Assembly: GCA_965222035.1 (NCBI GenBank)
Contig: OZ244940.1
Coordinates: forward strand, 1,287,134 to 1,351,133
Direction: 5' to 3'
DNA: 64,000 bases
Origin: Candidatus Amphirhobacter sp.
GTDB lineage: Bacteria > Pseudomonadota > Gammaproteobacteria > Tethybacterales > Tethybacteraceae
The translations under genes were made by a program, and so were the position numbers. This document shows positions 11,507-56,113 of the stretch, piece after piece (the stretch's first letter is position 1; the number at the start of each line of letters is the position of its first letter). The notes beneath the pieces were generated by a model that was given only the letters and a program-made list of their open reading frames with translations, had not been told where the DNA came from and did no database searches.

Positions 11507-12634
<1,128 letters not shown>

Positions 12635-15094: not shown

Positions 15095-15096
15095 GC

Positions 15097-15972: not shown

Positions 15973-15974
15973 GG

Positions 15975-19150: not shown

Positions 19151-19532
19151 AATCTGTAATTATATGCTAGCGGTTGCCACAACCATATCACTTTTAAGAT
19201 ATGTTTTTATGCTGAAAAGAGCGTTAATAGTCAAATTATTGAAAATAAGAAGCAATTGTTTTTACTGAATTTCATTTTTTAAAGGGGCTTGAAATGGCGG
19301 TTTGTGAAAATAAGAATTCAGAGCTAGTGAGAGAGAGCCACCTGGATCCGCCGCCCTTGCCAGCCTTGTTTCCAGCAACGCCACAGCCACCGATTTGAGG
19401 CCAGCATCCAGTGCTTAGCCGGTCCAGCCGCGGCTAAAGAGGGAAAGATGGGATTTGGTCAAGCAGGCCTTGCCACCCTTTTAAGCGTAGAATCTTGGTA
19501 ATAACAAGCGAAATTAGCGTAAAATAAGCGAC

Positions 19533-22500
19533 ATGGCCGCTATCCTGGCCAGGACCTGGCTCAGGATCAGAAAAAAAAAGGGGGGGGGTAGAGCCTTGCA
19601 ACCTCGCGTAGCCACTGCCTGCTTCGCTTTAATCATCCTGCTCGCCGCGGCTGTCGCGCCGGCGCAGCAGGCCAATTGGGTAGACCAGGGACGCGATGGC
19701 GTGTCCCAGACCAGTTATTTCCATTTGCCGAGCACGACGGACAGCTCGACTGGCATCTCGTTCCATCGCAGCCACCCCAGCTGCCGCTTCAACGACGTGC
19801 GGCTGGTGAATCCGCCGACGTGGCTGGAGATGATCAAGTACAACGGGGACGCCAAGGACGGCGACCCCGGCACTCGCTTCACGGTGCGCATGGAGCGAGG
19901 CCATGCCGACGACCGCAGCCTGCGCCTGTCGTTCAAGGCCGGCTCGACCATGCCGACTGGAGCGCACACCCTGTCCCTGGCGGCCGAGCGCCACCTGACG
20001 AGCCCGGGCTGCTTGGGCGTCGCCGCCGCGACCTTGTCGCTGGAGTACACGATTAGCATCTTCGACAACATCTCGTGGATGGCGCAGGGGCTGCAGGCAT
20101 ATTATAACGGCGCGATCTACCGCACCGATGAGCTGGGCGGACTGGCGCTGGACACGGGCTTGCGGCTGCATCGCCGGCCGAACCTTTGCTCGAAGGTCGA
20201 CCTGTCTCTGGTCGGCGGTACCGAGGACTACCTGGAACTGCGCGCCTTTGAGGCGCAAAATGTTTTGTATCAAAGGCGGACAACGCCACCCTCTGGAGGA
20301 ACTACGGTTACCAACGTGGTCCTCAACACCGGGCGGCCGCTGGGCGCAGGAGCCGCCAGGCTTACCAACCTGGTCATGGATCGCGACAGCCCGCGCGACA
20401 GCTACGTGCGCTTGTTTCACAAGGCGAGCGTCGCTGTGTCCGAGGCGCTCGAGATAACCGTCTCGGTTGCATTCGAGACCAGCCGGAGCTGCGGTTTCCC
20501 GGCGACGGTGCGCAAGCAAACGCTGGATTTCATGCGGCATCATGTTGCGCTTGCGCCAACCCAGTACCAAGCCACATGGAAGCTGGAATCCGAGAGCCTG
20601 ACGCCGGACGGACCATTCAGCCCTGTGCGCATGAGAAGGTTCGGTTTAACGCCCACCGGCATTTTCTTAAATCGCTCTTCTTCCCTTTGCGTGGTTACAA
20701 ATATTCAGCTGCTCAACCACACTGACAAATTCGATATCTACGCCTCCGCGGGCGCCGACGCACTTACAGAAAACCAAGGCGATCATGCAATCAAAAACAA
20801 AACCGGCCATGCCATTGCCTGGGTTATACCAGATGGCAAGGATCTGCCCGCTGCGGGTAGTGTCCTGCGGCTGTCTGTGCTCATGCGATCCAATCCCTTT
20901 CAATGCACTAACAACAACATCGCGCCCAGACAGACCCTGGCTTTCGCCTTGACCGTAGCCACGCCGGCGACGTGGGGTGTCCTGGCCGGCGATGTCACAC
21001 GGCAGACGGGACTGCTCCAGCCGTCGGTGATCAGGGCGTCGGCCACACCGACGGACACCGGGGTGCGTTTCCACCGCGGCACCTCCGCATGCCCCTTAGT
21101 GGACATACTGATGCAACCCAATCCGCATTTGGAAATGCAACTGTACAACGGCAACACCGCGACTGGAGCGGGGGTCACCACAATAAACGGCGTGCGCATG
21201 CAGGTTGGCCATGCGGATGATCGTCTAGTGGGACTGCAGTTCCGGGAGCGAGCTACGGTGCCGAATGGCACGCTGACGGTCACGCTAGAGGCGAGCGCAT
21301 CATCTGGCTGCGAGGCTGCGGACGAGCCGTGGCCGTTGACCTTAACCTACACGCTGACAGTGCAGGAGCGCTGGTCGTGGGAGACGCAGAGCCGGGACAA
21401 CTTCGGCACTCAGCTGGAACTCTCGCGGGCGGACCTGGACGGGGCCGGCTTGGTGGCGACCGGCCTGCGGATCCATCGCGACTCCCATGCCTGCCAGAGC
21501 ACCGACGTGGCGCTGGCGGCGGACGCGCCGTCGTACCTGTCGCTGCGGCGCTACACCGCCGCGGGCGCGACGGACGGCGACGCGGCGGCGACGCTGGCCG
21601 GCGTGAACATGTCGGGATCAGGGGCGAATGACCGCCATGTGCAGGTGATGATCGACGGCGGCACGCAGATCACGCCGGGCGCGACCGTGCTGGTCACGCT
21701 GACGGTCAGCCCGAACTCGTCCTGCACCGGCAACCTCCATCCGGAGGCGCAGCAGCTGGTCGGCAAGGTGCTGCCTGTCAATCCGGACGGCTGGGAGAGC
21801 ATCGCCGGCGACGTGGCCTCGCGCCCGCGGATCCTGTTCCGGCCGTCGCAGCTGCGGGCGGCCGCCACGCCGACGGACACCGGGCTGCGCTTCCACCGCG
21901 GCACCGATTCGTGTCCGCTGGTGGATGTGGTGCTGCGGAACACCGATTATCTGCAGCTGCAGCGGTACACCCCCGCCGGCGCCGTGTCGGGCGCGGCGGG
22001 ATCGTCCTTCACCAACGTGCGCATGGCGGCCGGCCATGCCAGCGACCGGCTGGTGGGCGTGCAGTTCAAGGCCGGCGTCCAGGTCCCGGCGACTAGCCTG
22101 ACGCTGACGCTGGTGGCGCAGCCGGTGTCCTCCTGCGTCAATCCGCGCAAGCCGCGGCCGTTGACGATGTCTTACACGTTGGCGGTGGCGGAGCATTGGC
22201 CGTGGCGGCTCAAGCCGCAGGACAATCTAGGCATGGTGGTGAGCCTGGAGGTGGAGAACCTGGCGGTGTCCGGCCCGGTGGCGACCGGGCTGCGGCTGCA
22301 TCGCGACATCCTGGTGTGCTCGAACTTCGACGTGGCGCTGGCGGCGGACGCGCCGAGTTACCTGAAGCTGCGCAAGTACCTGGGCAACGGCGCGACGGAC
22401 GGCGCGGCGGCGCGGTCGCTGACGGGCGTGGACGTGTCCGGCGCGGGCGCGCTCGCCCGGCATGTGCGGGTGGCGATCGACGGCGGCACCAGCTTCACGG

Positions 22501-41258: not shown

Positions 41259-41269
41259 AAGAACCCTTC

Positions 41270-41298
41270 AAGGCGCCTGCCGCGCCGCCTTGTTCCTG
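41270..41298 (+). terminator. Candidate intrinsic terminator between giant gene A and paralog B
   Basis: A 7-bp stem caaggcg / cgccttg with a 10-nt loop is followed by ttgtt. It lies 12 nt after the stop. Confidence 0.35.
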
Positions 41299-41322
41299 GG
41301 CAAAGTGGGATAAAATACGCCT

Positions 41323-44300
41323 ATGGAAGGGCGTTTGATTCGCCATGAAAGGGGGGGGGGTAGCGCCCTTCTAAGCGGCCTGGCGGTTGCGGCCGCCTTG
41401 TTGCTGACGGGCGTGATGATGGCGCCGCAGGCGCATGCTCAGGTGCAGGTTGTCCTAGGAAACCTCCACAAGACAACGGCCGACAAGGTTCTCACTTATC
41501 CCTATGAGGCTGGCCTGACCGGCATCGCTTTCCATGTGACTACATGCGGCGCTCCATCCAACATTGTTCTGCAAACCCGCACCGACGATTTTGACCTGGT
41601 AAGTTATTTCGTCGTACAAGGCCAAATCGGCGTTCGAGAAGGCCGCGGCGACAGCCGAAATGCCGTCGGCCGCGTCCACTACCTGGAGCTAGTTGACGGC
41701 CGGGACAGCCTGCCGGACGGTCCTCTGACCGTTACGGTCAAAGTTTGCAACCAGGCGCCATCGGCCTACACCGTCACGGTGGCGACGTGGTACGACCAGG
41801 GCATGCACAGCGACCGGCCCGCCAGCCGCCACGTCCGAGACATTGCGCCTGGCCAAGACACCGGCATCGCCATTCATCGCAGCGCCAACACGTGTCGCTT
41901 CACCGACGTGCGGCTGGCGGCCGGCGCGCCGGCTTGGCTGGAGCTGCGCCGGCATCGCGCCGACGGCACCGCCGACGGCGACGCCGGGCAGCGTTTGACG
42001 GCGCGGATGGAGAAGGACCATGCCGACGACCGGCATGTGCGCGTGCGCTTCAAGGACGACGCCAGCATGGAGCCGGGCAGCTATGTGTTCTCGATCGTGA
42101 TGGCGCGCACGGCGACCAGCGGCGCGGGATGCACCGCCGCGAGCGCGGCGGCGTACACGCTAGGCTACACCCTCAACATCAGTTTGGGAGCCAGCTGGGA
42201 ACGTCAGGAATCCCTGAACAGCGACAGCGTCACAAGCCACAGTGCGGATGCTTTGGGCGGGCCGTTCGCATTGGCGATGGGCCCGCGCATCCACCGCAGC
42301 TCCTCTTCATGCCGGTGGACGGACGCGAGCCTGGTGGCCGGCGGCTCGTTCTTGGCTATGCAGCGCTACGCCACAACGGGCAACGAAGCGGTTGGCGCGC
42401 CGGCGACCAGCGTGACCGACGTGCGCATGCAGCGCGGCTCTCCGGGCGATCGATATCTCGGCTTGATCTATCGCCGGAATACGCCAGTGCCAGCGGGGAC
42501 GGTGACCGCGGCGGTGGAACTCAAGCCGGCCGCGCGCTGCGCGAATTACGTCGGCATCCCCGGGCCGCTGACGCTGAGCTTCACCGCCACGATCGGCGCG
42601 GCAGCTGCCAACACGGAGCCCTGGATCATCAAGACCGGCTTCGCGAGCTCGGCGCCGACCATCTCGGTCTTCAGCCCGGCCAGCATCCACACGTCCCGCA
42701 CATATAGGGAAATACATACCGGCATCTTCATCGGCCGGCGCACGGCGACTTGCAACGATTATTCCTACAACCTGCTCAATCACCGCGATCTGTTCGAAGT
42801 CGGATACTATCCACTTCACACAGGCTACCAAGACAATATTCAACCCGACGATTCGTTTAGCCGGAATCGCTCCTTCAATTTCGGTGACAACGATGGAGGC
42901 TTCGGCCTGCAGTTCGAGGCCGGCGCGCAGCCGGAGCCGAACACCACCATCACCCTGCATGTGGCGCTGGGCAGGTTTAGATGCGGCAGCCCCGCGCTGA
43001 CCACGCTGTCGTACACCATGACCATTGGCCCGGCGGCGCCCTGGGGAACCTTGGCGAACAATGTCGCGACGGTGACCACGCTGTTCAGGCCCACGCAGCT
43101 GGCGGCCGCCGCGTCGGCGACCGACACCGGCATCCGCTTCAACCGCGGCGTGGCGACGAGCATCTGCACGAACGTGGACGTGGAGCTGGCGAGCGGCAGC
43201 CGCACCCATGTGGAACTGCAGAAGTACAACGGGACGGCGGCCGACGGCGCGGCGGCGGTTTCGTTCGGGGGCCTGACCATGCATGCGGGCGCGACGGGCA
43301 ATCCGGTGGGCCTGCAGTTCAAGGCGGGCGCGTCGGTGCCGGCCGGCGTCCTGACGGTGGCGGTGATCGCCAAGCCCGCCGGCAGCTGCGATCATGCGGA
43401 AGAGCCAATCCCGCTGACGGTGAATTATGAGCTGGTGGTGGGCGAGCGGCAGCCGTGGCAGGTGCACGATCTCGACAGCATGGGACGGGTGGTACTGCTC
43501 GACGGCTTTGCGGCGCAAAGGAGCGCGGCCGACTCCGGCCTGCGGGTGCACCGCAAGCTGAGCGGCTGCAGCTCCATGGATGTGTCGCTGCCAGACGACG
43601 CGCCTGATTGGGCGATGCTGCAGCAGCATGGCCCGAGCGGCCCGGTCGGCGCGCGCGCGCGGACCCAGGCGGCGGTGCCGATGGCGGGCTCGGGCGCGGC
43701 CGGCGACCGGCATGTGCGGCTGATGATCGTGCCGTCGGGGACGCCCCTGCCGGATGCGCGGCTGACGATGGGCGTCGCGGTGGCGGCCAACGCATCATGC
43801 GGGGCCGGCAGCGACATTCCGGCGCCGCAGATGCTGTCGGGCGTGGTGGTGTTTGACACCCAAGGCGTGGGCACGGAGCAGGCGATCCAGGCGGGCGCTT
43901 CGGCGGCGGTACGGGCAATCGGCTTGGAAACCCTGGACGCGGTCATGGCGCGGCCGGACGCCGTGGCCGGATCATGGTCCAGCGAGCTGCTCGGCTTGAT
44001 GCACGCGCACGAGGCCGAGCTCGAGCGCGGCGAGTTCGAGCTGCGGGACCTGGCGGGCGAGGAGTTCGCGCTGGCTTTGTCGAACAGTCCGACCGGCTTG
44101 CCGGCGGGCCTGGCCCTGTGGGGACGTTTCGCTGCCTACGATGTCGGCAATGAGATCGAAGGCGGCGCGCGCTCGGACAATGAATTGTTCAGCGCGAGCT
44201 TCGGCCTCGACTACCGCCTGCGCGCGGGCATGATGCTCGGCCTGGGCTATGGCCACCACGAGATCGACGGCAGCTACGCTGCCAGCTCGGCCAGCGGCAT

Positions 44301-45150
44301 TTACCAGCTGGATCTGGATTTGTACCAGCCGTACGTCGTCGGCTCGATCGGTCCGGGGCTGCTGGCCGCCTTCGCGAGCCAGGGCTCGGGCGACCTGGTG
44401 ATGCACAGCCACGACGGCATCGCGCTGGCGCCGAGCGAGGCCGACTACCAAGGCTGGGGCCTGGGCTGGAGCAGCGCGGTCGAGCGCTGGGACCTGCTGC
44501 TGCGCGCGGGCGCCAGCACGGGCGAGCTCGACGTCGAGGATGAGACTTTGACGCTGGATACCGAAGCGGGCGCGGCGCGCCTGGCGGTGGCCTACGCGCC
44601 GCAGCGGGATTTGATCAACCATCTGCCCTTTCGTGCCGAGCTCGAGGTGGCCTGGGAGGACAACTGGGGCGATGTCGCGACCGACGCGAGCTGGCTGCTG
44701 GGCGCGGCCTTCGAGTACTCCGGCGCCGGGCCCATGCATGCGCGGGCGGCCTACCGCCGGGCGATTGCGGGCGACGGCGACCTGTCCGGCCTGGAGTTCG
44801 ACTTCCAGGTCGATCCGGCCCGCGGCGGCCTGGGTCCGTCCTTCGCCTTGCGCCCGGGCTATGGCTTGGAAACGGGCACTGACTTGTTCGCGCAAGCGGC
44901 GCGGCCGACTTCCTTTACCGCCGGCGCCGACCGCGGCCGGCGCCTGCGCGCCGAGATGGCTTGGGGCCTGCCGGTCAGCGGCGGGGTGCTGACGCCCTAT
45001 GGCGACTGGAGCATGAACGACGCGAGCACGCAGCGCCAACAACTGGGCCTGCGCCTGGGCACCGGCGCCTATGGCGATTGGAACTTGGGCTGGCGCAGCG
45101 CCGACAGCGCCGCTGACGAGCTGCATCTGGAACTGCGCATCGGCGACTAG
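41323..45150 (+). CDS. Paralogous autotransporter-like repeat protein (1275 aa): signal peptide, divergent N-terminal region, ~4 two-cysteine domains and the conserved C-terminal beta-barrel-like domain
   Basis: The start reads M E G R L I R H E R G G G S, a G10 tract, then the signal peptide ALLSGLAVAAALLLTGVMMAPQAHAQ. The C-terminal ~430 aa are homologous to the gene A C-terminus and end ELHLELRIGD. A TAAAAT box lies ~9 nt upstream. Confidence 0.85.
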   Translation: MEGRLIRHERGGGSALLSGLAVAAALLLTGVMMAPQAHAQVQVVLGNLHKTTADKVLTYPYEAGLTGIAFHVTTCGAPSNIVLQTRTDDFDLVSYFVVQGQIGVREGRGDSRNAVGRVHYLELVDGRDSLPDGPLTVTVKVCNQAPSAYTVTVATWYDQGMHSDRPASRHVRDIAPGQDTGIAIHRSANTCRFTDVRLAAGAPAWLELRRHRADGTADGDAGQRLTARMEKDHADDRHVRVRFKDDASMEPGSYVFSIVMARTATSGAGCTAASAAAYTLGYTLNISLGASWERQESLNSDSVTSHSADALGGPFALAMGPRIHRSSSSCRWTDASLVAGGSFLAMQRYATTGNEAVGAPATSVTDVRMQRGSPGDRYLGLIYRRNTPVPAGTVTAAVELKPAARCANYVGIPGPLTLSFTATIGAAAANTEPWIIKTGFASSAPTISVFSPASIHTSRTYREIHTGIFIGRRTATCNDYSYNLLNHRDLFEVGYYPLHTGYQDNIQPDDSFSRNRSFNFGDNDGGFGLQFEAGAQPEPNTTITLHVALGRFRCGSPALTTLSYTMTIGPAAPWGTLANNVATVTTLFRPTQLAAAASATDTGIRFNRGVATSICTNVDVELASGSRTHVELQKYNGTAADGAAAVSFGGLTMHAGATGNPVGLQFKAGASVPAGVLTVAVIAKPAGSCDHAEEPIPLTVNYELVVGERQPWQVHDLDSMGRVVLLDGFAAQRSAADSGLRVHRKLSGCSSMDVSLPDDAPDWAMLQQHGPSGPVGARARTQAAVPMAGSGAAGDRHVRLMIVPSGTPLPDARLTMGVAVAANASCGAGSDIPAPQMLSGVVVFDTQGVGTEQAIQAGASAAVRAIGLETLDAVMARPDAVAGSWSSELLGLMHAHEAELERGEFELRDLAGEEFALALSNSPTGLPAGLALWGRFAAYDVGNEIEGGARSDNELFSASFGLDYRLRAGMMLGLGYGHHEIDGSYAASSASGIYQLDLDLYQPYVVGSIGPGLLAAFASQGSGDLVMHSHDGIALAPSEADYQGWGLGWSSAVERWDLLLRAGASTGELDVEDETLTLDTEAGAARLAVAYAPQRDLINHLPFRAELEVAWEDNWGDVATDASWLLGAAFEYSGAGPMHARAAYRRAIAGDGDLSGLEFDFQVDPARGGLGPSFALRPGYGLETGTDLFAQAARPTSFTAGADRGRRLRAEMAWGLPVSGGVLTPYGDWSMNDASTQRQQLGLRLGTGAYGDWNLGWRSADSAADELHLELRIGD
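41351..41360 (+). repeat. Poly-G (G10) tract in the 5' coding region of paralog B, currently in frame
   Basis: The context gaaaGGGGGGGGGGtagcg matches the motif in the other paralogs. Confidence 0.7.
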
Positions 45151-45205
45151 CAAGCGGCAGCGAGCGGGTTGCCTGCGTCGTTCTCAAGAGGTTAAGTAGT
45201 ATTTA

Positions 45206-45243
45206 GTGGCAGACAATCTGCCGCTGCAAGATAGCGGTTTGAG
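45206..45243. terminator. Conserved hairpin (ggcaga-caa-tctgcc) plus second small hairpin and T-run between the convergent paralog B and AAA ATPase genes; a candidate bidirectional terminator
   Basis: A 6-bp stem with a 3-nt loop is followed by gcggtttg. The same element recurs at 56159-56195 in the second module. Confidence 0.4.
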
Positions 45244-45305
45244 CTAAACAGGCTTACGATGACTTGGCCGAGCTTCTCGGCCTGCGCAACATCGATTCTG
45301 CTCCT

Positions 45306-46463
45306 TCAATTTTTCTTGCGCTTGCGCCGGGCTTTGAAGTATTGGAAGAAGGAGGGGATGGCAGCCCGTACCTTAGCGTCGTTCGTAAACCATACCAAGC
45401 TGTTGTCTAGCAGCAGATTGAAAATCTTGCGCGCCTCTTCGGAACTCATGCCATCATTGGTGGCCGCCAGCTCCGCGGCAACCTCTTCGGGCGGCAATGG
45501 CGGATCCTCATCTTCCACGATAGCCACTACCTGGCTGGCGTAGTCCAATGCGTCTGCGTCTGCGATCTTCTCGTAAACGCTGTGATAGTAAATTTGGCGC
45601 TCCTTCTGCATGGCGGCCTCGGCGCCCTGCGCCAGGGCCAGGTCGACTTCATTGCGCTTGGCTTTCCGCATGGCCTTCCACACTTCCCTGCCCGCCAGCT
45701 GGATGAAGTAAGGATAGTTGTCAGTCCAGCCCGCCATCAAATCAAGCGCCTCGTCCGCCACCTTCACGCCATTGTCCAGCAGCGGCTTGCTCAGTGCTTC
45801 GCGCACCGCCTCGTCGCTGAGCTGATGGATGTATATCGATTGGCAGCGATTGATGAAGGAGGCGTCGGCCTGGTGCAATCTCCCGTCGAGCGCTGGAGTA
45901 CCGGCTATCATCACCGCCAAAGGCCGCTTTAGCATGAGCATCTGCTGGCACGCCTGCAGCAAGTCCCCGAGGGACGTAACATCGTAGTGCATCGCCTCGT
46001 CCAGCAGCAGCAGCACGGGTTTCCTGCGCAGCAGCTGCTGCAACACTCGCGCAATCGTCCGCTTCTCGTAATGCTTCCGCCGCGCGGTAAAGATGGACAG
46101 GCTAAACTGGTAGAAAGCGTTCAGCCACAGCAATGCGTGCTCGCGGATGTCCATGCCATCAAGCAAGCCGTTGATGATGTCGCTGTCCGGGTTCAAGTTG
46201 CGCAGCCTGGCGATGTTAACCACGTGGATGCCTTGTTGCCGCGCTTCGACGCCAGCCACACCTAGCAGCGTCGTTTTGCCCGCCCCGCGCGGGCCGACAA
46301 TCTTGATGGGCGTGAGCGGAGAACGCTCCAGGCCGCCGCCGACCAGAGGCTTGGCGATCAAACGCAGGGTCTCGCTGATTATGTCCCGCTGCTCTTCCCG
46401 TCCCGCCAAATGCGGGGGTTCGAGCGCTGTGCCCGGAACAAACGGGTTTTCGACAGACCCCAT
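45306..46463 (-). CDS. AAA+ ATPase (ATPase_2/AAA_16-like; Walker A GPRGAGKT, Walker B LLLLDEAMHY), paralog 1
   Basis: 385 aa. The N-terminus reads ...NPFVPGTALEPPHLAGREEQ...IKIVGPRGAGKTTLL. It is about 85% identical to the ORF at 56256..57416. A TAAAAT box lies 7 nt upstream of the ATG on the minus strand. Confidence 0.8.
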   Translation of the reverse strand: MGSVENPFVPGTALEPPHLAGREEQRDIISETLRLIAKPLVGGGLERSPLTPIKIVGPRGAGKTTLLGVAGVEARQQGIHVVNIARLRNLNPDSDIINGLLDGMDIREHALLWLNAFYQFSLSIFTARRKHYEKRTIARVLQQLLRRKPVLLLLDEAMHYDVTSLGDLLQACQQMLMLKRPLAVMIAGTPALDGRLHQADASFINRCQSIYIHQLSDEAVREALSKPLLDNGVKVADEALDLMAGWTDNYPYFIQLAGREVWKAMRKAKRNEVDLALAQGAEAAMQKERQIYYHSVYEKIADADALDYASQVVAIVEDEDPPLPPEEVAAELAATNDGMSSEEARKIFNLLLDNSLVWFTNDAKVRAAIPSFFQYFKARRKRKKN

Positions 46464-46644
46464 GATTTGTATTTTACCCTTGCAAGAGGCGGAAAAAGCA
46501 AAAACAGGGGCTCCATGCTTGGCTTGGAGCGCTGCCAGCCCATCTTGGCCTGGTCCTCAATCAACGTTGCGCTCAGGCAACAACAATGCCGAGCATGCCC
46601 GCCTGCGGACAGGCTCCCTGCCAGGCATGCTTTAAAATCTCCGC

Positions 46645-48432
46645 ATGGCCGGCCTGCGTGCGTCCTTGTCCAAGTTGGTCCGCGCCGCCCTGGCGCTGGC
46701 CGTTGGCGCTATTGCCGCCGGTGCCCATGCGCAGTGGCAGACGCTGACCCAGGACAACATGAACACGGCGTCCTCGCTGGATCTGCTGGCGCTGCAGGCG
46801 GCGGGACCTGCGCCGACGGGCCTGATCGTACACCGCAAGACCAACAGCTGTACGAGCATTGACGTGGAGCTGGCGGCTAACGCGCCGGCGATGTTGCGGC
46901 TGCGGCAGTACCGCGGCGACCAACCCGAGGGCAGTGCGGAGCGCTCGCTGCAGGGCGTGTCGATGACCGGCGTGGAAGCGACGGACCGCCATGTGCGGGT
47001 GATGATCGCCAGCGGCGCTTCCCTGACGGTGGGCGCGACGGTGTTCGCGACCCTGACGGTGAAGGCGAACTCGACCTGCACTGGCTCGCAGCCGGCGGAG
47101 CAGCAGGTGACGGGCCGGGTGGTCGTGACCGGCACCGGCCTGGCGACCCAAGAGGCGGCCCAGGCGAGCAACGCCACCGCGCTGCGGCGCATCGGCACCG
47201 AGACGCTGGATGCCATCATGCTGCGCATGGACGCGGTGGCCGATGCTTCCGCCGCCACTGACCTGCGCGGCTTGGCCGCCATCCAGGCGCGGGATTCGCA
47301 GGAAGGCTTCGACCTGCGCGACCTGGCCGGCCAGGACTTCGTGCTGGGTCTGAACCAGCGCGCCAGCGACGGGCCCTTGAAGGCGGGCAACCTGGCGTTG
47401 TGGGGACGTTTCGGCCTCTATGCCCTGGATGCGGTCACTGACGGCGGCGTCAAGCATGACAGCGACCAGCTCAGCGCGAGCTTCGGCCTCGATTACCGCT
47501 TTCGCGACGACATGCTGCTGGGCTTTGGCTACGGCCACCACGGTTTCGAAGGCGGCTACGCCGGCCATCGCGAGGTCGCGGGCGACTACGTCTTGGATGT
47601 CAACGTGCTGCAGCCGTATGTGGTCGGGCGCTTCGGACCGCCGGGCTGGCTGGCGGCGTACGCCAGCATGGGCAAGGGCGAGATGCGGGTGAGCAACGGC
47701 GACGGCCTGCCGGCTGGCGAGTACGAGGTCGATTACAGCGGCTGGGGCTTCGGCTGGCGGCATGAGCTGCGGCAGGGCCTGCGCCTGCGCGCCGGCGCGA
47801 GCGGCGGCGAGCTGGACGCGGAGGATGGCGAGTTGTACCTGGATGTGGCGGCTGGCGCCGCGCAGCTGGCGGTCGGCTATGCGGTTAGGGCCGAGCTGAT
47901 CAAAGGCGCTGAGCTGCATCCGGTGATTGAGGTCGCCTGGGTGGATAAGTGGGGCGACGCGGCCACCGAGGCCACCTGGCTGTTCGCGGCCGCATTCGAG
48001 TATGCTGGCGAGGGTCCGATGCATATCCGGGCGGGCTATCGCCGGGCGATGGCCGGCGATGCCCTGTCCGGCGCTGAGATCGACGCGCGGATCGCGCCCG
48101 CTCGCGGCGGCCTGGGTCCGTCCCTGGCGCTGCGGCCCAGCTACGGCCTGCCGCGGGGGGATGAGTTGCTGCCTGATGCATCCGTCCTGTCCTTGCCGTC
48201 AGCTGCCGGGTACCGCGGCGTACGTCTGGACGCTGAGTTCGTCTGGGGCCTGCCAGTCAACGGCGGGGTCGCCACGCCGTACAGCGAATGGAGCTTGGAT
48301 GCGGATCAGGGCCATGCGGGTGGCCTGGGCTTGCGCTTGGGTACCGGCGCGTATGGCGATTGGGATTTGGGCTGGCGCCGCACAGTTAGCGCCACCGACG
48401 AGCTGCATCTGGAATTGCGCATCGGCGACTAG
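46645..48432 (+). CDS. Minimal family member (595 aa): canonical signal peptide, one two-cysteine domain and the C-terminal beta-barrel-like domain
   Basis: It starts MAGLRASLSKLVRAALALAVGAIAAGAHAQ with no homopolymer tract, followed by TGLIVHRKTNSCTSIDVELAANAPAMLRLRQY...DRHVRVMIASG...NSTC. The C-terminus is homologous to the other paralogs (...LWGRFGLY...LSASFGLDYRFRDDMLLGFGYG...ELHLELRIGD). A TAAAAT box lies 9 nt upstream. Confidence 0.85.
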   Translation: MAGLRASLSKLVRAALALAVGAIAAGAHAQWQTLTQDNMNTASSLDLLALQAAGPAPTGLIVHRKTNSCTSIDVELAANAPAMLRLRQYRGDQPEGSAERSLQGVSMTGVEATDRHVRVMIASGASLTVGATVFATLTVKANSTCTGSQPAEQQVTGRVVVTGTGLATQEAAQASNATALRRIGTETLDAIMLRMDAVADASAATDLRGLAAIQARDSQEGFDLRDLAGQDFVLGLNQRASDGPLKAGNLALWGRFGLYALDAVTDGGVKHDSDQLSASFGLDYRFRDDMLLGFGYGHHGFEGGYAGHREVAGDYVLDVNVLQPYVVGRFGPPGWLAAYASMGKGEMRVSNGDGLPAGEYEVDYSGWGFGWRHELRQGLRLRAGASGGELDAEDGELYLDVAAGAAQLAVGYAVRAELIKGAELHPVIEVAWVDKWGDAATEATWLFAAAFEYAGEGPMHIRAGYRRAMAGDALSGAEIDARIAPARGGLGPSLALRPSYGLPRGDELLPDASVLSLPSAAGYRGVRLDAEFVWGLPVNGGVATPYSEWSLDADQGHAGGLGLRLGTGAYGDWDLGWRRTVSATDELHLELRIGD

Positions 48433-48512
48433 GATTGGCCGGCGGGCTCCGGCTTCGGCGGTTTCCTGTATTGTAAAATGGCTTGAGATGGCCGCAGGAT
48501 TCTTGGATGAAA

Positions 48513-48521
48513 GGGGGGGGG
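48513..48521 (+). repeat. Poly-G (G9) tract; the length puts the upstream ATG and signal peptide out of frame in paralog D
   Basis: The context gatgaaagGGGGGGGGGtagcggccctctag matches E (G10) but has one G fewer. Confidence 0.8.
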
Positions 48522-48570
48522 TAGCGGCCCTCTAGGGCGTTGGCGCCCAGCCCTGGCGGCGCTGGCTTGC

Positions 48571-51500
48571 ATGCTGGCTTGCGCCTTCGCCGCCGAGGCG
48601 CAGCAACTAGGCAATCAGCACAGCGCGACGGCCGATGGCATCGTCAACCTGCCGTACGACAGCGGCAAGAGCACTGGCATCAGATTTCATGTAACCAGCT
48701 GCACCACTGGTGGTCGTTTTCGAAACGGTCTTTATTTGCGCAACGACGACTTTGTTTATCCTGAATTTATTTTTTACAACACCAACGGCAGTTTTTCCCA
48801 CCGATCAGATGCGATCAGTAACTTATTCTTTGGCCGTATAGCGCATTTTGCTGTCTTAAGCGTTGCCACCACGGAAGGAGTGCGGCGGCCGGAGTTCAAG
48901 ATCTGCAACCATGACCAGCTGGCCTACCCCGTAACGGTGGCAATCTGGGAGGACCAGGGGCAGGATGACGAAACGCCGGCGAGCAGCTACTTTAACGTAC
49001 GGAGCGCGGCGGCCGGCGTCGACACCGACATCGCCTTCCACCGCAGCGGCTCGACCTGCCGCTACAATGACGTTCAATTGGTCAATCCGCCTTCTTGGCT
49101 GGAGCTGCGCAAGTACACGGCCAGCGGGACTCCGGACGGCGCGGCGGGCACGCGCTTCACGGTGCGGATGGAGAAGGATCATGCGGAGGATCGCCAGGTG
49201 CGGCTGCTGTTCAAGGAAGGGGTGACGGTTGCGACGGGCCAGCACGTGGCGACCATGGCGGTGGCGCGGCATCTAGCGTCGGCCGGCTGCAGCGGCGGCC
49301 TGGACACGACGGTGACGCTGACGTACACGCTCAACATCACCGACCAGGCTGAATGGGCAGCGCAAGGCCCGGAAGAGGTTCGCGATGCTCGCGCTTTGCG
49401 CACCGACGCTCTCGGCGCGGCCTTGAACCTGACCATTCACCGCAGCTCGGAGATCTGCCGGTACACGTCGGTGTCGCTGGCGGGCGACGCCGGCTCGTTC
49501 CTGGAGCTGCGCGCCTATGCGACGGCGACGGGCCGCCAGGCGGGCGCGGCGGCGGCGAGCCTGCCGGGCGTGTTCATGCAGCGGGGCGCGGCGGGCGATC
49601 TCAACGTACGGGTGTACTCCAAGAGCGGCGCGGCTGCGCCGCAGCCGGGGAGGAAGGATGTGACGATCGTGGTCCAGCCCGGCGCCCGCTGCGGTTTCCA
49701 GCAGGGCTTGCCGGCGGCGCAGAGCATAGCGATTGCGTGGAACGTGCTCGCGCCCTACGGCTCGCCCGAGCCCTGGCAAGCAGGCAGCATCGATGATGCG
49801 ACGTCGGACGGACCGTTCAGCCCGCGGGCGGTGTCGGAAGCAACCGATCCAGTACCCGTCGGGATTTACCTGCAGCGCAACTCAGCCTCGTGCGTCAATA
49901 TGTACTATGAGCTGCTCAGCGGCCAGGAAGCGCTTGATTTCCATTTTGTAGCCCAAAACAGCCGCATCCGGCAAGAAGGTGACGTGATAGGTTTGAAGGC
50001 CAGCGGCAATCGCTCGGCTGGCCTGTATTTCGAGCCGGGCACGCAGCTGGAGTCCGGCGCCAAGCTGCCGGTGTCGATCCAGCTCCGGGCCTATCCGACC
50101 TGCAGCCAAGGCCCGGCGACCCAGACCATTGCGTTCACGTTGACGATGGGCGCGGCGGAGGCGTGGCGCGTCCTGGCAGGCGAGGTCGCGGCGGCGACGG
50201 CGCTGTTCCAGCCGGCGAGTTTGCGCGCGTCGACCTCGCCGACGGACACCGGTGTGCGCTTCCATCGCGGCACCTCGGCCTGTCCGCAGGTGGATGTGGC
50301 GGTGCGGCCGACGGCGTTCGTGGAGGTCCGCAAGTACAACGGCAGCGCGGCGGACGGCGCGGCGGCGCCTTCCCTGGCCAACGTGCGCATGCAGGCTGGC
50401 CATGCGGACGACCGGCTGGTGGGTCTGCAGTTCAAGGCGGGCGTTACGTTGCCGCCCGGTTTGTTGACCGCGACCTTGGTGGCCAAGGCGGCTTCGGACT
50501 GCACGCATGCCAATGCGCCGCAGCCGCTGACCTTGGCCTATGAATTGGCGGTGCAGGACGCCTGGCCATGGCGCGCGGCTGCGCAGGACAATTTCGGCGC
50601 GCCGGCGCTGATTGACACGCTGGAGCTCCAGAGATCCGGAGCGCGATCGACGGGGCTGCGTTTGCAGCGCAATTCCCGCGCCTGCGCGAGCACCGACGTG
50701 GCGCTGGCATCCGACGCGCCGGCGTATCTGTCGCTGCGGCGCTACAGCGCCACCGGCCCCGAGGGCGCTGCGGCGCGGTCGCTGAGCGGGGTGAACATGT
50801 CCGGCTCCGGAACGAATGACCGTCACGTGCGGATAGCGATCGCGGGCGGGACGTCGCTCACGATCGGCGCCGCCGTCGCGGTATCGCTGACGATCTCCGC
50901 CAACTCATCCTGCTCCGGCGCGGTGGGGGTACCGGCTGCGCAGGAGCTGGTGGGCTACGTGCTCGTCAGCGGCGGCGGCCTCGACACGGAGGCAGCCATG
51001 CAGGCGGGCACGGCCCTGGCGGTGCGGGCGCTGGGCATCGAGACATTGGGCGCGGTCATGGCGCGGCCGGGCGCGGCGTCGGACACATCCACGTCAGCGC
51101 AGCTGCTCGGCATGCTGGCGGCGAAGGAGAAAGAGCTCGAGAGCGGCGAGATCGACTTGCGGACGTTCCTCGCCGGCCAGCGGTTCTCCCTGCCGCTGTC
51201 GTCATCGGCCAGCGGCCTGCCGTCGGGCCTGATGCTGTGGGGCCGGGCGGCGGCGTATGAAGTGGGCTCGGAGAGCGAGAACGGCGCGCAGGTGGAAAGC
51301 GATTTGTTCAGCGGCAGCTTCGGCGTCGACTATCGCTTCACCGAGGGCATGCTGCTGGGTCTGGGCTACGGCCGCCACGGGCAAAAGGGCCAGTACCGCA
51401 ACGGCGGCGCAGCCGGCAGCTACCAGCTGGATTTGAATTTGTACCAGCCCTACGCCGCGGCGCGGATCGGCCCGGGCTGGCTGGTGGCTTACGGCAGCCA

Positions 51501-52269
51501 GGGCACGGGCAATCTGCTGCTGGAGGCCCAGGGCAATCTTACTTACCAGCCCCATCTCAAGGCCGATTATGTTGGCTGGGGCCTGGGCTGGTACAACGAC
51601 ATCGAGCGCTGGGACCTGCGCCTGCGCGCCGGGGCCAGCTCCGGCGAGCTCGAATTCGAGGAGGATCGCTTTGAGATGAACGCCGCAGCGGGCACCGCGC
51701 GCCTGGCGGTGGCCTATGCGCCGGGCCGCAACCTGGTCGTCGACATCCCGATGCAGCCGGAGTTCGAAGTGGCCTGGGCCGATGAATGGGGCGACGCCGC
51801 CGGCGATCCGAGCTGGCTGGTGGCGCTGGTGTTCGACTACGCCGGCACCGGTCCGATGCATCTGCGCGCCGCCTACCGTCATGCGGTCAGCGGCGGCGGC
51901 GACCTCGCCGGAGTGGAGCTGGACCTCCGCGTCGATCCGAACCGCGGCGGCTTAGGCCCCTCTTTCGCTCTGCGCCCGCATTACGGCATCGAAGCGGGAG
52001 AGGATTTGTTCGCACAAGCGGCGCGGCCGACCACCTTCGCCGCGGGCGCCGACCGCGGCCGGCGCCTGCAGGCCGAGATGGCCTGGGGCTTGCCAGTCAG
52101 CGGCGGGGTACTTACGCCCTATGGCGACTGGAGCATGGAGCGGCGGGATCGCAGCCGGCAGCTGGGCCTGCGCTTGGGTACCGGCGTCTACGGCGATTGG
52201 AACTTGGGCTGGCGCCGCGCGGGCCGCGCCGCGGACGAGCTGCATCTGGAATTGCGCATCGGCGACTAG
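48571..52269 (+). CDS. Paralog D (1232 aa from the internal ATG); by comparison with paralog E the native start is the ATG at 48488, which is currently out of frame because the poly-G tract is G9, consistent with a phase-OFF state
   Basis: With G9, the ATG at 48488 reads MAAGFLDERGGVAAL and stops at 48533-48535. The main frame is open only from the stop at 48508, and the first ATG (48571) leaves a truncated signal peptide, MLACAFAAEAQQ. One extra G would fuse them: MAAGFLDERGGGSGPLGRWRPALAALACMLACAFAAEA-QQ. The rest is about 80% identical to paralog E. Confidence 0.75.
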   Translation: MLACAFAAEAQQLGNQHSATADGIVNLPYDSGKSTGIRFHVTSCTTGGRFRNGLYLRNDDFVYPEFIFYNTNGSFSHRSDAISNLFFGRIAHFAVLSVATTEGVRRPEFKICNHDQLAYPVTVAIWEDQGQDDETPASSYFNVRSAAAGVDTDIAFHRSGSTCRYNDVQLVNPPSWLELRKYTASGTPDGAAGTRFTVRMEKDHAEDRQVRLLFKEGVTVATGQHVATMAVARHLASAGCSGGLDTTVTLTYTLNITDQAEWAAQGPEEVRDARALRTDALGAALNLTIHRSSEICRYTSVSLAGDAGSFLELRAYATATGRQAGAAAASLPGVFMQRGAAGDLNVRVYSKSGAAAPQPGRKDVTIVVQPGARCGFQQGLPAAQSIAIAWNVLAPYGSPEPWQAGSIDDATSDGPFSPRAVSEATDPVPVGIYLQRNSASCVNMYYELLSGQEALDFHFVAQNSRIRQEGDVIGLKASGNRSAGLYFEPGTQLESGAKLPVSIQLRAYPTCSQGPATQTIAFTLTMGAAEAWRVLAGEVAAATALFQPASLRASTSPTDTGVRFHRGTSACPQVDVAVRPTAFVEVRKYNGSAADGAAAPSLANVRMQAGHADDRLVGLQFKAGVTLPPGLLTATLVAKAASDCTHANAPQPLTLAYELAVQDAWPWRAAAQDNFGAPALIDTLELQRSGARSTGLRLQRNSRACASTDVALASDAPAYLSLRRYSATGPEGAAARSLSGVNMSGSGTNDRHVRIAIAGGTSLTIGAAVAVSLTISANSSCSGAVGVPAAQELVGYVLVSGGGLDTEAAMQAGTALAVRALGIETLGAVMARPGAASDTSTSAQLLGMLAAKEKELESGEIDLRTFLAGQRFSLPLSSSASGLPSGLMLWGRAAAYEVGSESENGAQVESDLFSGSFGVDYRFTEGMLLGLGYGRHGQKGQYRNGGAAGSYQLDLNLYQPYAAARIGPGWLVAYGSQGTGNLLLEAQGNLTYQPHLKADYVGWGLGWYNDIERWDLRLRAGASSGELEFEEDRFEMNAAAGTARLAVAYAPGRNLVVDIPMQPEFEVAWADEWGDAAGDPSWLVALVFDYAGTGPMHLRAAYRHAVSGGGDLAGVELDLRVDPNRGGLGPSFALRPHYGIEAGEDLFAQAARPTTFAAGADRGRRLQAEMAWGLPVSGGVLTPYGDWSMERRDRSRQLGLRLGTGVYGDWNLGWRRAGRAADELHLELRIGD

Positions 52270-52324
52270 GGTTGGCCGGCGGGCTCCGGCTCCGGCGGTT
52301 TCCTGTATTGTAAAATGGCTTGGA

Positions 52325-55300
52325 ATGGCCGCAGGATTTTTTGATGAAAGGGGGGGGGGTAGCGGTCCTCTAGGGCATTGCCGCTCAATCCTGGCGGCGC
52401 TAACTTGCATGCTGGCTTTGCCCTTCGCCGCCGAGGCGCAGCAACTAGGCAACCAGCATAGCGCGACGGCCGATCGCATCGTCAACCTGCCGTATGACAG
52501 CGGCAAGAGCACTGGCATCAAGTTCCACATCACCAGCTGCACCACCGGCGGTGGTTTTAGTTCCAGGATTTATCAACGCAACAACGATTTCATTACTCAC
52601 CTTTTTCTTGACTACAGCACGGACGGCAGTTATCTAGGCAGCACAAATTCAAGCAGTTACCCCTTCAGCAATAGTGTACTGCATTTTGCTGTCGTAAGTG
52701 TTGCCACCACGGAAGGAGTGCGACGCCCGGAAATAAAGATATGCAATCATGCGGACATGGCCTACGCCGTTACGGTGGCGAAGTGGGAGGACCAGGGCCA
52801 GGCTGACGACACGCCGGAGAGCAGGTACTATCACGTGCGCGGCGCAGCGGCCGGCGTCGACACCGGCATCGCCTTCCACCGCAGCGGCTCGACCTGCCGC
52901 TACAATGATGTTCAATTGGTCAATCCGCCCTCCTGGCTGGAGCTGCGCAAGTACACGGCCAGCGGGACGCCGGACGGTGCCGCCGGCATGCGCTTCACGG
53001 TGCGGATGGAGAAGGATCATGCGGAGGATCGCCAGGTGCGGCTGCTGTTCAAGGAAGGGGTGACGGTTGCGGTGGGCCAGCACATGGCGACCATGGCGGT
53101 AGCGCGCCATTTAGCGTCGGCCGGATGCAGCGGGGGCCTGGACACGACGGTGACGCTCGTGCACACGCTCAACATCACCGACCAGGCCGACTGGACGGCG
53201 CAGGGCGGGGAAAACGCCATCGAGCCTTACGACATTCGCTCCGACGCTCTCGGCGCGGCGGGGGTGGGCCTGGGCCTGACGCTTCACCGCAGCTCGGAAG
53301 TCTGCCGGTACACGTCGGTGTCGTTGGCGGGCGACGCAAGCTCTTTCTTGGAGCTGCGCACCTACTCGACGGCGACGCGGCGGCTGGTCGGTACGCCGGC
53401 CGCGAGCCTGCCGGGCGTGTTCATGCAGCGCGGCGTGGCGGGCGACCGCAACGTGCAGGTGTTCTCCAAGAGTGGCGCGTCGGTGACGCCGGGGACCAAG
53501 GCGGTGACGATCGCGGTCCAGCCCGGTGCCCGCTGCGGTTTTCAGCAGGGCTTGCCGTCGGCACAGACCTTGGCGTTGCAGTGGACGGTGCTCTCGCCCT
53601 TCAGCTCGCCCGAGGCCTGGCAATTAGGCAGCGGCGATGACGCGGTACCGGACGGGCCGTTCAGCCCGCGGGCGGTGTCGGAGTCCTCTGATCCGGTGCC
53701 CGTCGGGGTGTACCTGCATCGTACTTCAGCGTCCTGTAGTTTCATCCATCATGAGATTCTAAGCGGCCATGAAGCGCTCGATATATATCTTGTGAATCCT
53801 GGCCGTACCAGCCGCACCTGGCGGGGCGATTTAGCAGCAATAAATATCAACTTCAACTCGGCCGCCCTGTATTTCGAGCCGGGCGTGCAGCTGGCGTCCG
53901 GCAGCGAGCTGCCCGTGTCAATCCAAATTCGCCCTGATGCGACATGCAACGCGGGCGCGGCCGTCCAGACCCTGGCGTTCACCTTGACGATGGGCACGGC
54001 GGAGGCGTGGCGCGCCCTGGCCGGCGATGTCGCGACGGCGACGATGCTGTTCCAGCCGGCGAGCCTGCGCGTGTCGACCTCGCCGACGGACACCGGCGTG
54101 CGCTTCCATCGCGGCACCTCGGCCTGTCCGCAGGTGGATGTGGCGGTGGGCCCGACGGCGTTCATGGAACTGCGCAAGTACAATGGCGGTACCGCGGACG
54201 GCGCGGCGGCAGTGTCTCTGGCCGACGTGCGCATGCAGGCGAGCCATGCCGACGACCGGCGGGTGGGGGTGCAGTTCAAGGCGGGCGTCACGCTGCCGCC
54301 GGGCTTGTTCACGGCGACCGTGGTGGCCAAGGCGGCCTCAGGCTGCGCGCATGGCAACGCGCCGGTGCCCTTGACCTTGGCTTATGAATTGGCGGTGCTG
54401 GACGCCTGGCCGTGGCGGACAGCGGCGCAGGACAATTTCGGCACGCCAGCGCAGCTGGACAGGCTGGAGCTCGAGGGTTCCGGCGCGCTGCCGACTGGAT
54501 TGCGCGTGCAGCGCAATTCGCGGGCCTGCGCGAGTACCGATGTGGCGCTGGCATCCGACGCGCCGTCATATCTGTCGCTGCGGCGCTACAGCGCCACCGG
54601 TCCCGACGGCGCGGCGGCGCGGTCGCTGGCGGGCGTGAACATGACCGGCTCCGGCGCGGCCGACCGCCATGTGCGGGTGATGATCGCGGGTGGGACGGCG
54701 CTTGATGTCGGCGCCGCGGTCACGGTTTCGCTGACGGTATCCGCCAACGCATCCTGCTCGGGCGCGGCGGGCGTACCGGCGGCGCAGGAGCTGGTGGGCT
54801 ACGTGCTCGTCAGCGGCGGCGGGCTGCTGGCGGAGGCGGCCATGCAGGCGGGCACTGCCTTGGCGGTGCGGGCGCTGGGCATCGAGACGCTGGGCGCGGT
54901 CATGGCGCGTCCCGGCGCGCCATCAGGAGCGGCGGCCAGCGAGCAGCTGCTCGGCATGCTGGCGGCGAAGGAAGCGGAGCTCGAGAGCGGCGCGATCGAC
55001 TTGCGCGAGTTCCTCGCCGGCCAGAGTTTCGCGCTGCCGCTGGCGTCCGCCGACGGCGGCCTGCCGCCAGGCTTGATGATGTGGGGCCGGGCGGCGGCAT
55101 ATGACGTGGGCGCGGCGGTCGAGAACGGTCCGCGGGTGGACAGCGATCTGTTCAGCGGCAGCTTCGGCGTCGACTATCGTTTTCGCGAGGGCATGCTGCT
55201 GGGGCTGGGCTTTGGCCGGCACGAGCTGTCGGGTCGTTACAGCAATCGGGGTTCCACCGGCAGCTATCAACTGGATTTGAATCTGTACCAGCCTTATGCC

Positions 55301-56113
55301 GCGGCGCAGCTCGGCCCGGGCTGGCTGGCGGCCTACGGCAGCCAGGGCACGGGCGACTTGCTGCTCGAGATCCAGGATGGCGTGGACCGCAAGCCCAGCC
55401 TCAAGGCCGACTACACCGGCTGGGGCCTGGGCTGGTACAACGACATCGAGCGCTGGGACCTGCGCCTGCGGGCCGGCGCGAGCGCCGGCGAGCTGGAGTT
55501 CGAGGAGAATCGCCTTGAGCTGAATACCGAAGCGGGCACGGCGCGCCTGGCGGTGGCCTATGCGCCGGGCCGCGACCTGGTCGTCGACATCCCGATCCAG
55601 CCGGAGGTGGAGATCGCCTGGGCCGATGAATGGGGCGACGCCGCCGGCGACTCAAGCTGGCTGCTGGCGCTGGCCTTCGACTACGCCGGCGACGGTCCGC
55701 TGCAGCTGCGCACCACCTACCGCCGCGCAGTCAGCGGCGGCGGCGACCATGCCGGGGCCGAGCTGGACGTCCGCGTCGATGCCGGCCGCGGTGGCTTGGG
55801 CCCCTCCTTCGCTTTGCGCCCGCATTACGGCATTGAAGGGGGAGCGGATTTGTTCGCGCAGGTGGCGCAGCCGACCACCTTCGCCGCAGGCGACGACCGC
55901 GGCCGTCGCCTGCAAGCTGAGATGGCCTGGGGCCTGCCGGTCAACGGCGGGGTGCTGGTGCCGTACGGTGGCTGGAGCATGGAACGACGCGATCACAGCC
56001 GGCGGCTGGGACTGCGCCTGGACAGCGGCGCCTACGGCGACTGGAACCTGGGCTGGCGCAGCGCCGACAGCAGTATCGACGAGCTGCATCTGGAACTGCG
56101 CATCGGCGACTAA
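52325..56113 (+). CDS. Paralog E (about 1262 aa): signal peptide after an in-frame G10 tract, ~4 two-cysteine domains and the C-terminal beta-barrel-like domain
   Basis: The ATG at 52325 reads MAAGFFDERGGGSGPLGHCRSILAALTCMLALPFAAEAQQLGNQHSATADRIV.... The listed ORF 52121..56113 only extends upstream because there is no stop in the frame. The C-terminus ends ELHLELRIGD. Confidence 0.85.
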   Translation: MAAGFFDERGGGSGPLGHCRSILAALTCMLALPFAAEAQQLGNQHSATADRIVNLPYDSGKSTGIKFHITSCTTGGGFSSRIYQRNNDFITHLFLDYSTDGSYLGSTNSSSYPFSNSVLHFAVVSVATTEGVRRPEIKICNHADMAYAVTVAKWEDQGQADDTPESRYYHVRGAAAGVDTGIAFHRSGSTCRYNDVQLVNPPSWLELRKYTASGTPDGAAGMRFTVRMEKDHAEDRQVRLLFKEGVTVAVGQHMATMAVARHLASAGCSGGLDTTVTLVHTLNITDQADWTAQGGENAIEPYDIRSDALGAAGVGLGLTLHRSSEVCRYTSVSLAGDASSFLELRTYSTATRRLVGTPAASLPGVFMQRGVAGDRNVQVFSKSGASVTPGTKAVTIAVQPGARCGFQQGLPSAQTLALQWTVLSPFSSPEAWQLGSGDDAVPDGPFSPRAVSESSDPVPVGVYLHRTSASCSFIHHEILSGHEALDIYLVNPGRTSRTWRGDLAAININFNSAALYFEPGVQLASGSELPVSIQIRPDATCNAGAAVQTLAFTLTMGTAEAWRALAGDVATATMLFQPASLRVSTSPTDTGVRFHRGTSACPQVDVAVGPTAFMELRKYNGGTADGAAAVSLADVRMQASHADDRRVGVQFKAGVTLPPGLFTATVVAKAASGCAHGNAPVPLTLAYELAVLDAWPWRTAAQDNFGTPAQLDRLELEGSGALPTGLRVQRNSRACASTDVALASDAPSYLSLRRYSATGPDGAAARSLAGVNMTGSGAADRHVRVMIAGGTALDVGAAVTVSLTVSANASCSGAAGVPAAQELVGYVLVSGGGLLAEAAMQAGTALAVRALGIETLGAVMARPGAPSGAAASEQLLGMLAAKEAELESGAIDLREFLAGQSFALPLASADGGLPPGLMMWGRAAAYDVGAAVENGPRVDSDLFSGSFGVDYRFREGMLLGLGFGRHELSGRYSNRGSTGSYQLDLNLYQPYAAAQLGPGWLAAYGSQGTGDLLLEIQDGVDRKPSLKADYTGWGLGWYNDIERWDLRLRAGASAGELEFEENRLELNTEAGTARLAVAYAPGRDLVVDIPIQPEVEIAWADEWGDAAGDSSWLLALAFDYAGDGPLQLRTTYRRAVSGGGDHAGAELDVRVDAGRGGLGPSFALRPHYGIEGGADLFAQVAQPTTFAAGDDRGRRLQAEMAWGLPVNGGVLVPYGGWSMERRDHSRRLGLRLDSGAYGDWNLGWRSADSSIDELHLELRIGD
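52350..52359 (+). repeat. Poly-G (G10) tract in the 5' coding region of paralog E, in frame (ON configuration)
   Basis: ttttttgatgaaagGGGGGGGGGGtagcggtcct. Confidence 0.8.

Follow-up and report, generated by a model that had tools for sequence, protein, structure and literature searches.

Does a run of nine or ten guanines, placed at the same point in four of five neighbouring surface-protein genes, act as a genetic switch? The question is raised by a 64,000-nucleotide (nt) stretch of the genome of Candidatus Amphirhobacter sp. (contig OZ244940.1, positions 1,287,134 to 1,351,133), hereafter the window, whose own numbering is used throughout and which carries five paralogous genes, A to E, for large autotransporter-like proteins on its + strand. 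In an original prediction, made from the letters alone, the guanine (G) tracts had been taken for sites of slipped-strand phase variation. The expectations of this mechanism that we examined at the sequence level were borne out, namely conservation of the tract, differences in its length, its standing as the sole frameshifting difference between orthologues, constraint on the coding sequence and stop codons in the alternative frames. We consider it probable that each tract is a slipped-strand translational phase-variation (contingency) switch.

On re-reading of the sequence, the positions and lengths given for the four tracts proved exact: G9 in gene A (19580-19588), G10 in gene B (41351-41360), G9 in gene D (48513-48521) and G10 in gene E (52350-52359), all on the + strand. 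In gene A the run is preceded by A9 (19571-19579), forming a double homopolymer on the + strand (19571-19588) that occupies codons 13-19 and reads RKKKGGG. These four G9/G10 runs and the A9 of gene A are the only homopolymers of at least seven bases in the 64-kilobase (kb) window; of the remaining G runs, one G6 is the longest. A solitary run would be no surprise, since dinucleotide-shuffled sequence gives roughly one G9 match in each window; four tracts at the same position, on the sense strand of paralogous genes, exclude chance. The immediate context gaaaG..tagcg, described as shared by all four, does not extend to gene A, which reads aaaaG9tagag.

Relatives were then sought in sequence collections. 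The family amounted to 15 sequence clusters among 5.8 billion proteins searched, originating from ENA metagenome assemblies and one NCBI genome, and scans of species-representative genomes and of Joint Genome Institute (JGI) metagenomes with the family alignment returned no relatives. Two JGI metagenome matches to the leader DNA pattern were set aside as chance occurrences in unrelated genes. Nine metagenome loci from three samples (designated by L and a number) supplied 11 further tract-bearing family genes, so that, with A, B, D and E of the window, 15 loci could be tabulated. The proposed comparison of tract length against frame in related genes was thereby extended to 11 more genes: all 11 carry a G7-G10 run at the same position, and both lengths and frames vary. 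Throughout the window and the nine metagenome loci, every sense-strand G run of seven or more lies at the 5' end of a family gene, and the G/C run of about eight or longer that marks a phase-variable locus is present in the window and in the nine related loci.

All 15 tract-bearing family genes preserve the tract as nucleotide sequence, while the peptide around it varies by locus (ERGGGS, MGGV, SEGGGS, KKKGGGR). A Gly3 peptide motif as the reason for the tract was rejected on codon usage, given that glycine is encoded by GGC in 79% of cases and by GGG in 9.5%, and that the 83 Gly-Gly pairs elsewhere in eight genes include no GGG-GGG. Judging from these comparisons, the G run is a nucleotide-level feature and not a peptide motif.

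Where the tract lies within the leader was confirmed by reading each one: in A, B, D and E it is situated between a start codon and the signal peptide, 25-47 nt after an upstream ATG (ATG1, at 19533 in A, 41323 in B, 48488 in D and 52325 in E) and ahead of the charged and hydrophobic parts of the signal peptide. ATG1 in turn follows a TAAAAT box on the + strand (19520-19525 in A, 7 nt before the ATG; 41311-41316 in B; 48474-48479 in D; 52311-52316 in E). The spacing between box and ATG1, previously put at 7-10 nt, measures 6-8 nt in the window and 6-9 nt when relatives are included. Across an alignment of 14 leaders, T.TAAAAT, the tract and the TAG that follows it are near-invariant, and TAAAAT would serve as a promoter -10 element. 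The tract-less family member, gene C (46633-48432 including the box, ATG at 46645, + strand, 595 residues), has the same TAAAAT box 6 nt before an ATG that leads straight into a normal signal peptide, an arrangement also kept in L091. Because gene C shares the box-to-ATG spacing without having a tract, it supports ATG1 as a real start, and ATG1 may begin a leaderless mRNA.

A second start codon, absent from the original prediction, was found directly before the tract (ATG2, in the form ATGAAA-Gn, at 41345 in B, 48507 in D and 52344 in E). In B, D, E and most of the relatives ATG2 occupies a frame other than that of ATG1, and an AGGA stands 7 nt upstream of it in D and E. Translation would start either at the upstream ATG1 or at the proximal ATG2 with its AGGA Shine-Dalgarno sequence. 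Past the tract, both wrong frames are closed within 21 nt at 15 of 15 loci, the stops lying at +1 and +12 nt in 13 of the 15; in the window, on the + strand, gene A has TAG at +1 and +21 nt after the tract, gene B TAG at +1 and TAA at +12, and gene D TAG at +1 and +12.

Translated from a start that precedes the tract, the proteins show, as judged by inspection, a Sec signal peptide with an Arg-containing n-region, a hydrophobic core of 12-15 residues and an AxA-type site, cleavage falling at AEA|Q, AHA|Q or AQQA|N. In B, D and E the stretch from the tract to the hydrophobic core is free of in-frame ATG, GTG and TTG codons, and the internal Met yields only MLALPFAAEA, which is devoid of a charged n-region. 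Because no usable start lies past it, the tract must be translated in these three genes if an exportable protein is to be made.

What, then, are the frame states of the individual genes? Gene A (19533-41258, + strand, 7241 residues) is in frame from ATG1 at A9G9. Gene B (41323-45150, + strand, 1275 residues) is in frame from ATG1 at G10, with its ATG2 at 41345 out of frame, and gene E (52325-56113, + strand, 1262 residues) is likewise ON from ATG1 at G10, with its ATG2 at 52344 out of frame. Gene D (48488-52269, + strand) is OFF: translation from its ATG1 at 48488 stops after 15 codons, leaving a long open reading frame of 1232 residues (48571-52269) that begins at the internal Met at 48571. 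Frame would be regained in gene D by one additional G from ATG1, or by two additional Gs or the loss of one from ATG2. These states are those that had been proposed for the four genes. The description of D and E as near-identical duplicates did not hold, as their proteins are 76% identical (dS ~0.39), against 40-49% among the paralogues A-E; that a single G is the sole insertion or deletion (indel) between ATG and signal peptide did.

In the mechanism that we favour, the run of 8-10 Gs, situated within roughly the first 10-20 codons, would gain or lose one G by slipped-strand mispairing during replication, and only some lengths would join a start codon to the long open reading frame. In the other frames translation would end at a TAG or TAA 1-21 nt past the run, giving no exportable protein, and each cell would display a random, heritable and reversible subset of the adhesin-like autotransporter-type proteins. 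The window would then record one such state, with A, B and E ON, D OFF and C having no switch. That slippage is frequent and reversible within a population is something that we infer from the sequences.

Related copies were found to differ in tract length. The G10 of gene E is G9 in L091, which has the same leader except for TAGAAT in place of TAAAAT, and also G9 in the L003 orthologue of gene E, whose protein is 94% identical. The syntenic loci L001 and L005, both at about 20x coverage, carry G8T, with ATG2 in frame, and G8, with ATG2 out of frame and an upstream GTG in frame, respectively; the G8T of L001 looks like a G-to-T interruption of the run. L002 has G9 and L004 has G7, the latter discounted because of low coverage and other likely errors. 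An indel audit of L001 and L005 (98.6% identical over 23.7 kb) identified the tract as the only net frameshifting coding indel, and a similar audit of E and its L003 orthologue, covering leader and coding sequence, identified it as the only net frameshifting indel. Differences in unit length among paralogues, originally offered as evidence of slippage, are weak when taken alone; the differences between orthologues carry that argument.

Sorted by frame, five of the 15 loci are open from ATG1 or its GTG equivalent (A, B, E, L088b and L005), two from ATG2 (L001 and L002) and eight from neither (D, L003, L004, L088a, L088c, L089, L090 and L091). So high a proportion of out-of-frame loci could be explained if gene D and its relatives were ordinary pseudogenes of a redundant family, disabled by irreversible frameshifts, and L088a, in which ATG2 is lost and GTG replaces ATG1, would fit such decay. 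The coding sequences tell otherwise. The out-of-frame genes stay open over more than 1,230 codons with no other disabling lesion, and the ratio of non-synonymous to synonymous substitution rates (dN/dS) is 0.20-0.52 for orthologue and paralogue pairs that include OFF members (0.20 for gene D against its L003 orthologue fragment; 0.20-0.47 in the pairs that bear on the out-of-frame copies). In both orthologue comparisons the frameshift falls at the tract and nowhere else, and an E-type leader has opposite states, ON and OFF, in two assemblies. Because their reading frames are intact and their dN/dS values lie at 0.20-0.52, the OFF genes are, to judge from these measures, maintained by purifying selection and not decaying, which is what reversible switches would lead one to expect, and we regard the pseudogene explanation as very improbable.

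Several observations weigh against a phase-variation switch. Each of the eight out-of-frame loci would need precisely one more G to enter the ATG1 frame, the same pattern that systematic under-calling of long homopolymers would leave. The sequence of L004 has 3.6x coverage and other likely single-base errors, in the form of uncompensated 1-nt insertions, and the variation in tract length is variation between assemblies. A sigma-70 promoter scan detected neither a -35 partner nor a canonical promoter for the TAAAAT box. Finally, initiation in gene A could occur at an in-frame TTG (19596, 7 nt past the tract), from which a normal signal peptide would be read, so that expression of this gene may be independent of its tract length. 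A role of the tract as a Shine-Dalgarno sequence for a downstream start was also considered; only gene A, with its TTG at 19596, agrees with this idea, and the lack of any in-frame start between tract and hydrophobic core rules it out for B, D and E.

The first of these observations, together with the uncompensated insertions in L004, could also mean that the length differences are sequencing or assembly errors, that all copies are in frame and that the tract is fixed, as a Gly3 n-region or a G-rich mRNA element. A uniform need for one additional G is what deletion-biased homopolymer calling would produce, and in a published chlamydial case artefact could not be separated from slippage (PMC3323650). 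Such errors would nevertheless have to account for G9 and G10 loci that co-occur in single assemblies (the window; L088a, L088b and L088c) and for a 2-nt error at each of the two loci that are in the ATG2 frame. Double off-frame stops and a homopolymer kept against the GGC preference would moreover be purposeless for a fixed Gly3, and a run of nine or ten Gs is mutable in any case. Sequencing or assembly error as the source of the differences is hence, in our estimate, quite improbable.

Slippage might also occur downstream of DNA replication, by RNA polymerase on A9G9 or G9-10, or by a -1 shift of the ribosome on G GGG GGG, in which case the tract would set a dosage through fixed fractional expression and a leaky OFF state. 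All eight OFF loci would be brought into frame by a -1 ribosomal shift or by one extra transcribed G, and in the ATG1 frame the run is read as AGG GGG GGG, which conforms perfectly to the slippery pattern X XXY YYZ. In gene A, the A9 that abuts G9 sets A AAA AAG in phase and amounts to a second mutable tract in the same leader; bacteria classically shift frame by -1 on the heptamer A AAA AAG, and RNA polymerase, too, tends to slip on runs as long as A9. A stimulatory RNA structure is unsupported: structure was predicted around the tract, and none of the 29 predicted pairs covaries, for which reason a structural role of the tract in RNA was dropped. In addition, the length differences between assemblies are present in DNA and would produce heritable variation anyway. 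Slippage at the RNA or ribosome level, which does not exclude phase variation, appears unlikely as the explanation of the tracts.

Within the favoured reading of a phase-variation switch, the two start codons allow a more elaborate version, suggested by L001 and L002, where ATG2 supplies the frame. Because the second start is in another frame, G9 would be the only fully OFF length class for leaders of the D/E type. Two of three length classes would then give an export-competent protein, with differing signal-peptide N-termini and probably differing yields, and only G(3n) would be OFF. As a joint reading, a three-state leader composed of a probably leaderless ATG1 and a Shine-Dalgarno-led ATG2, of a design common to the whole family and homogenised between leaders by gene conversion, in a deep-branching, uncultured gammaproteobacterium whose only known source is environmental metagenomes, is possible, and we advance it tentatively as rather doubtful in this complete form. 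A precedent exists in licA of Haemophilus influenzae, in which (CAAT)n stands just after initiation codons in two of three frames, so that two length classes are ON and one is OFF (PMC2212159). As in the D/E-type leaders, starts in two frames precede the repeat; licA differs in having a tetranucleotide repeat and a cytoplasmic enzyme, against a homopolymer and an exported protein here, where use of ATG1 and ATG2 is predicted. This joint reading, if true, would suggest a way of life in which the lineage faces a host, phage or predators.

Which kind of protein would be switched in this way? Searches of A-E against Pfam and NCBIfam gave nothing above cutoff, the sole Pfam signal being a sub-threshold match of gene E to PF03797 (18.2 bits, where the cutoff is 26). 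When the C-terminal 422 residues were searched as a profile, 736 proteins among 1.8 billion matched, always at their C-terminus, and sampled matches carry PF03797 at 43-52 bits (cutoff 26), some of them with Big_9 or cadherin-like passengers. By transitive homology, the C-terminal domain is probably a divergent autotransporter beta-domain, and the earlier designation of these giant proteins as autotransporter-like is supported by their relationship to PF03797 proteins. An AlphaFold2 model of the C-terminal domain built from five sequences was unusable (predicted local distance difference test, pLDDT, 30), and a profile search against the sequences of the PDB gave no meaningful match. Nearly every protein of the family has ...ELRIGD as its C-terminus, with E or N as the last residue in a few; outer-membrane beta-barrels usually end in an aromatic residue.

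The passenger region was read in gene A, which encodes a signal peptide, at least 22 tandem units of about 276 residues and the C-terminal autotransporter-type domain. Its units are 54-88% identical to one another and have conserved Cys pairs, and their period of about 828 nt exceeds the range of the tandem-repeat tool. A unit was modelled by AlphaFold2 with a pLDDT of 86 as two beta-sandwich domains, the fold of which matches pilins, cadherins and FimH-type adhesin domains. On this model, the passenger is made of immunoglobulin (Ig)/cadherin-like beta-sandwich repeats. The passenger of a classical type Va autotransporter is a beta-helix, in place of which tandem beta-sandwich repeats were found here. 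Judging from the remote homologues with Big_9 or cadherin-like passengers, the combination of an Ig-like passenger with PF03797 is a known, non-classical type.

Homopolymer phase variation of surface proteins is textbook knowledge in host-adapted pathogens such as Neisseria, Campylobacter, Bordetella and Chlamydia. Closest in concept to the window family are the Pmp proteins of Chlamydiaceae, which are likewise multi-copy autotransporter-type paralogues with poly-G; several chlamydial pmp genes hold long coding poly-G runs that are in or out of frame according to the sequencing (PMC3323650). There is no sequence relationship between the two: A-E contain no GGA[ILV] and almost no FxxN motifs and have no Pfam Pmp match. 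The window passenger consists instead of Ig/cadherin-like repeats, the tract position between start and signal peptide is strictly conserved, and the host is a high-GC (guanine plus cytosine) gammaproteobacterial lineage.

In mechanism, Bordetella and Neisseria come closest. The coding G/C runs of the autotransporter genes tcfA and bapC are the most variable tracts among strains of Bordetella pertussis, itself a high-GC proteobacterium (PMC1891110). The Bordetella tracts are gene-specific, in contrast to a family-wide leader, and switching was measured there, while here it is inferred from sequence comparison. Neisserial pilC has poly-G in its 5' coding sequence (PMC5320596), and interrupted tracts such as GGGC(G)11, known from gonococci (PMC5320596; PMC3723659), resemble the G8T of L001. 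The neisserial cases (pilC1/pilC2, NalP/MspA) involve other protein families and another host, whereas the members of the window family share one leader design with double off-frame stops and two starts.

The mechanism itself is therefore already known, and what is added is the protein family and an environmental, uncultured lineage; new is the one conserved leader design across most members of a previously undescribed autotransporter family. If confirmed, it would indicate that selection on the lineage is directed at its surface and fluctuates, with phage, grazers or a host as the source. The box, the two starts, the tract and the double off-frame stops would also form a compact natural module in which to study how a switch of this kind is assembled and how its paralogous copies stay alike.

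A further consequence concerns annotation. Of the 20 family proteins retrieved (P0001-P0020), 18 had been given the internal Met (MLA...AEA|Q) as their start by gene callers, among them gene E of the window, although its frame is open from ATG1. Because of these calls, the database entries of the family are without the real signal peptide, and internal-Met starts in this family should be read with the warning that they strip a functional one. Two of the retrieved proteins, P0009 and P0014, are further paralogues on the source genome; exact-protein look-ups of B, P0001 and P0009 gave no contig on record.

Leaders and gene numbers also differ between strains. The E orthologue in L003 carries a leader (2075-2215) identical to that of gene D and not to that of gene E, as compared with 48474-48610 (D) and 52311-52450 (E) of the window, and 5' leaders appear, on this evidence, to have been exchanged between paralogues by gene conversion or recombination. 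Downstream of rbsD/pfkB-like genes, L088 holds three tandem family genes (6158-21178), one of 2337 residues, at a chromosomal site where two other strains (L002/L004) have a single family gene; because of this difference, family copy number can be said to vary between strains. Apart from the tracts, the relatives show a single long run, a C9 that lies upstream of the family gene of L002, within a gene remnant (9918-9926, + strand). It adjoins sequence reading CTGCAGCTGCGCATCGCC (LQLRIA), and the syntenic L004 has only C4; the region resembles what is left of the C-terminal part of a further family gene.

The window has a GC content of 66.5% over its 64 kb, below the approximately 70% originally quoted for the genome. 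It contains dnaA (1158-2564) and gyrB (4994-7468), because of which it is placed near the replication origin, with the autotransporter cluster some 20-55 kb from the likely origin. All five family genes share the strand of dnaA and gyrB, and the cumulative GC skew rises steadily over 20-56 kb of the window. GyrB is 68% identical to that of one uncultured gammaproteobacterial metagenome-assembled genome and about 50% identical to all others among species-representative genomes, and by this measure the source organism is a member of a deep, uncultured gammaproteobacterial lineage. Rfam gave no matches in the window, and no other notable simple-sequence repeats were found in it.

Two patches of low GC (~0.556) lie ahead of the cluster, at 7550-8836 (+) and, directly upstream of gene A, at 17522-19150 (-). 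They encode an FRG-domain/TPR protein and a Schlafen AlbA_2 plus HATPase_c_4 protein, and these genes may be acquired or defence-related. Genes for P-loop ATPases occur at 45306-46463 (-) and 56256-57545 (-), the two copies being 79% identical, and have counterparts in L001 (14801-16399), L002 (13899-15065), L003 (6025-7191), L088 (21310-22440), L089 (3102-4283) and L090 (6321-7487). Such an ATPase gene adjoins almost every autotransporter cluster, usually convergent and immediately downstream; its product matches Pfam AAA_22/AAA_16, has weak STAND-like matches and bears no NCBIfam name. Divergence between the ATPase gene downstream of E and its L003 counterpart far exceeds that of the flanking genes.

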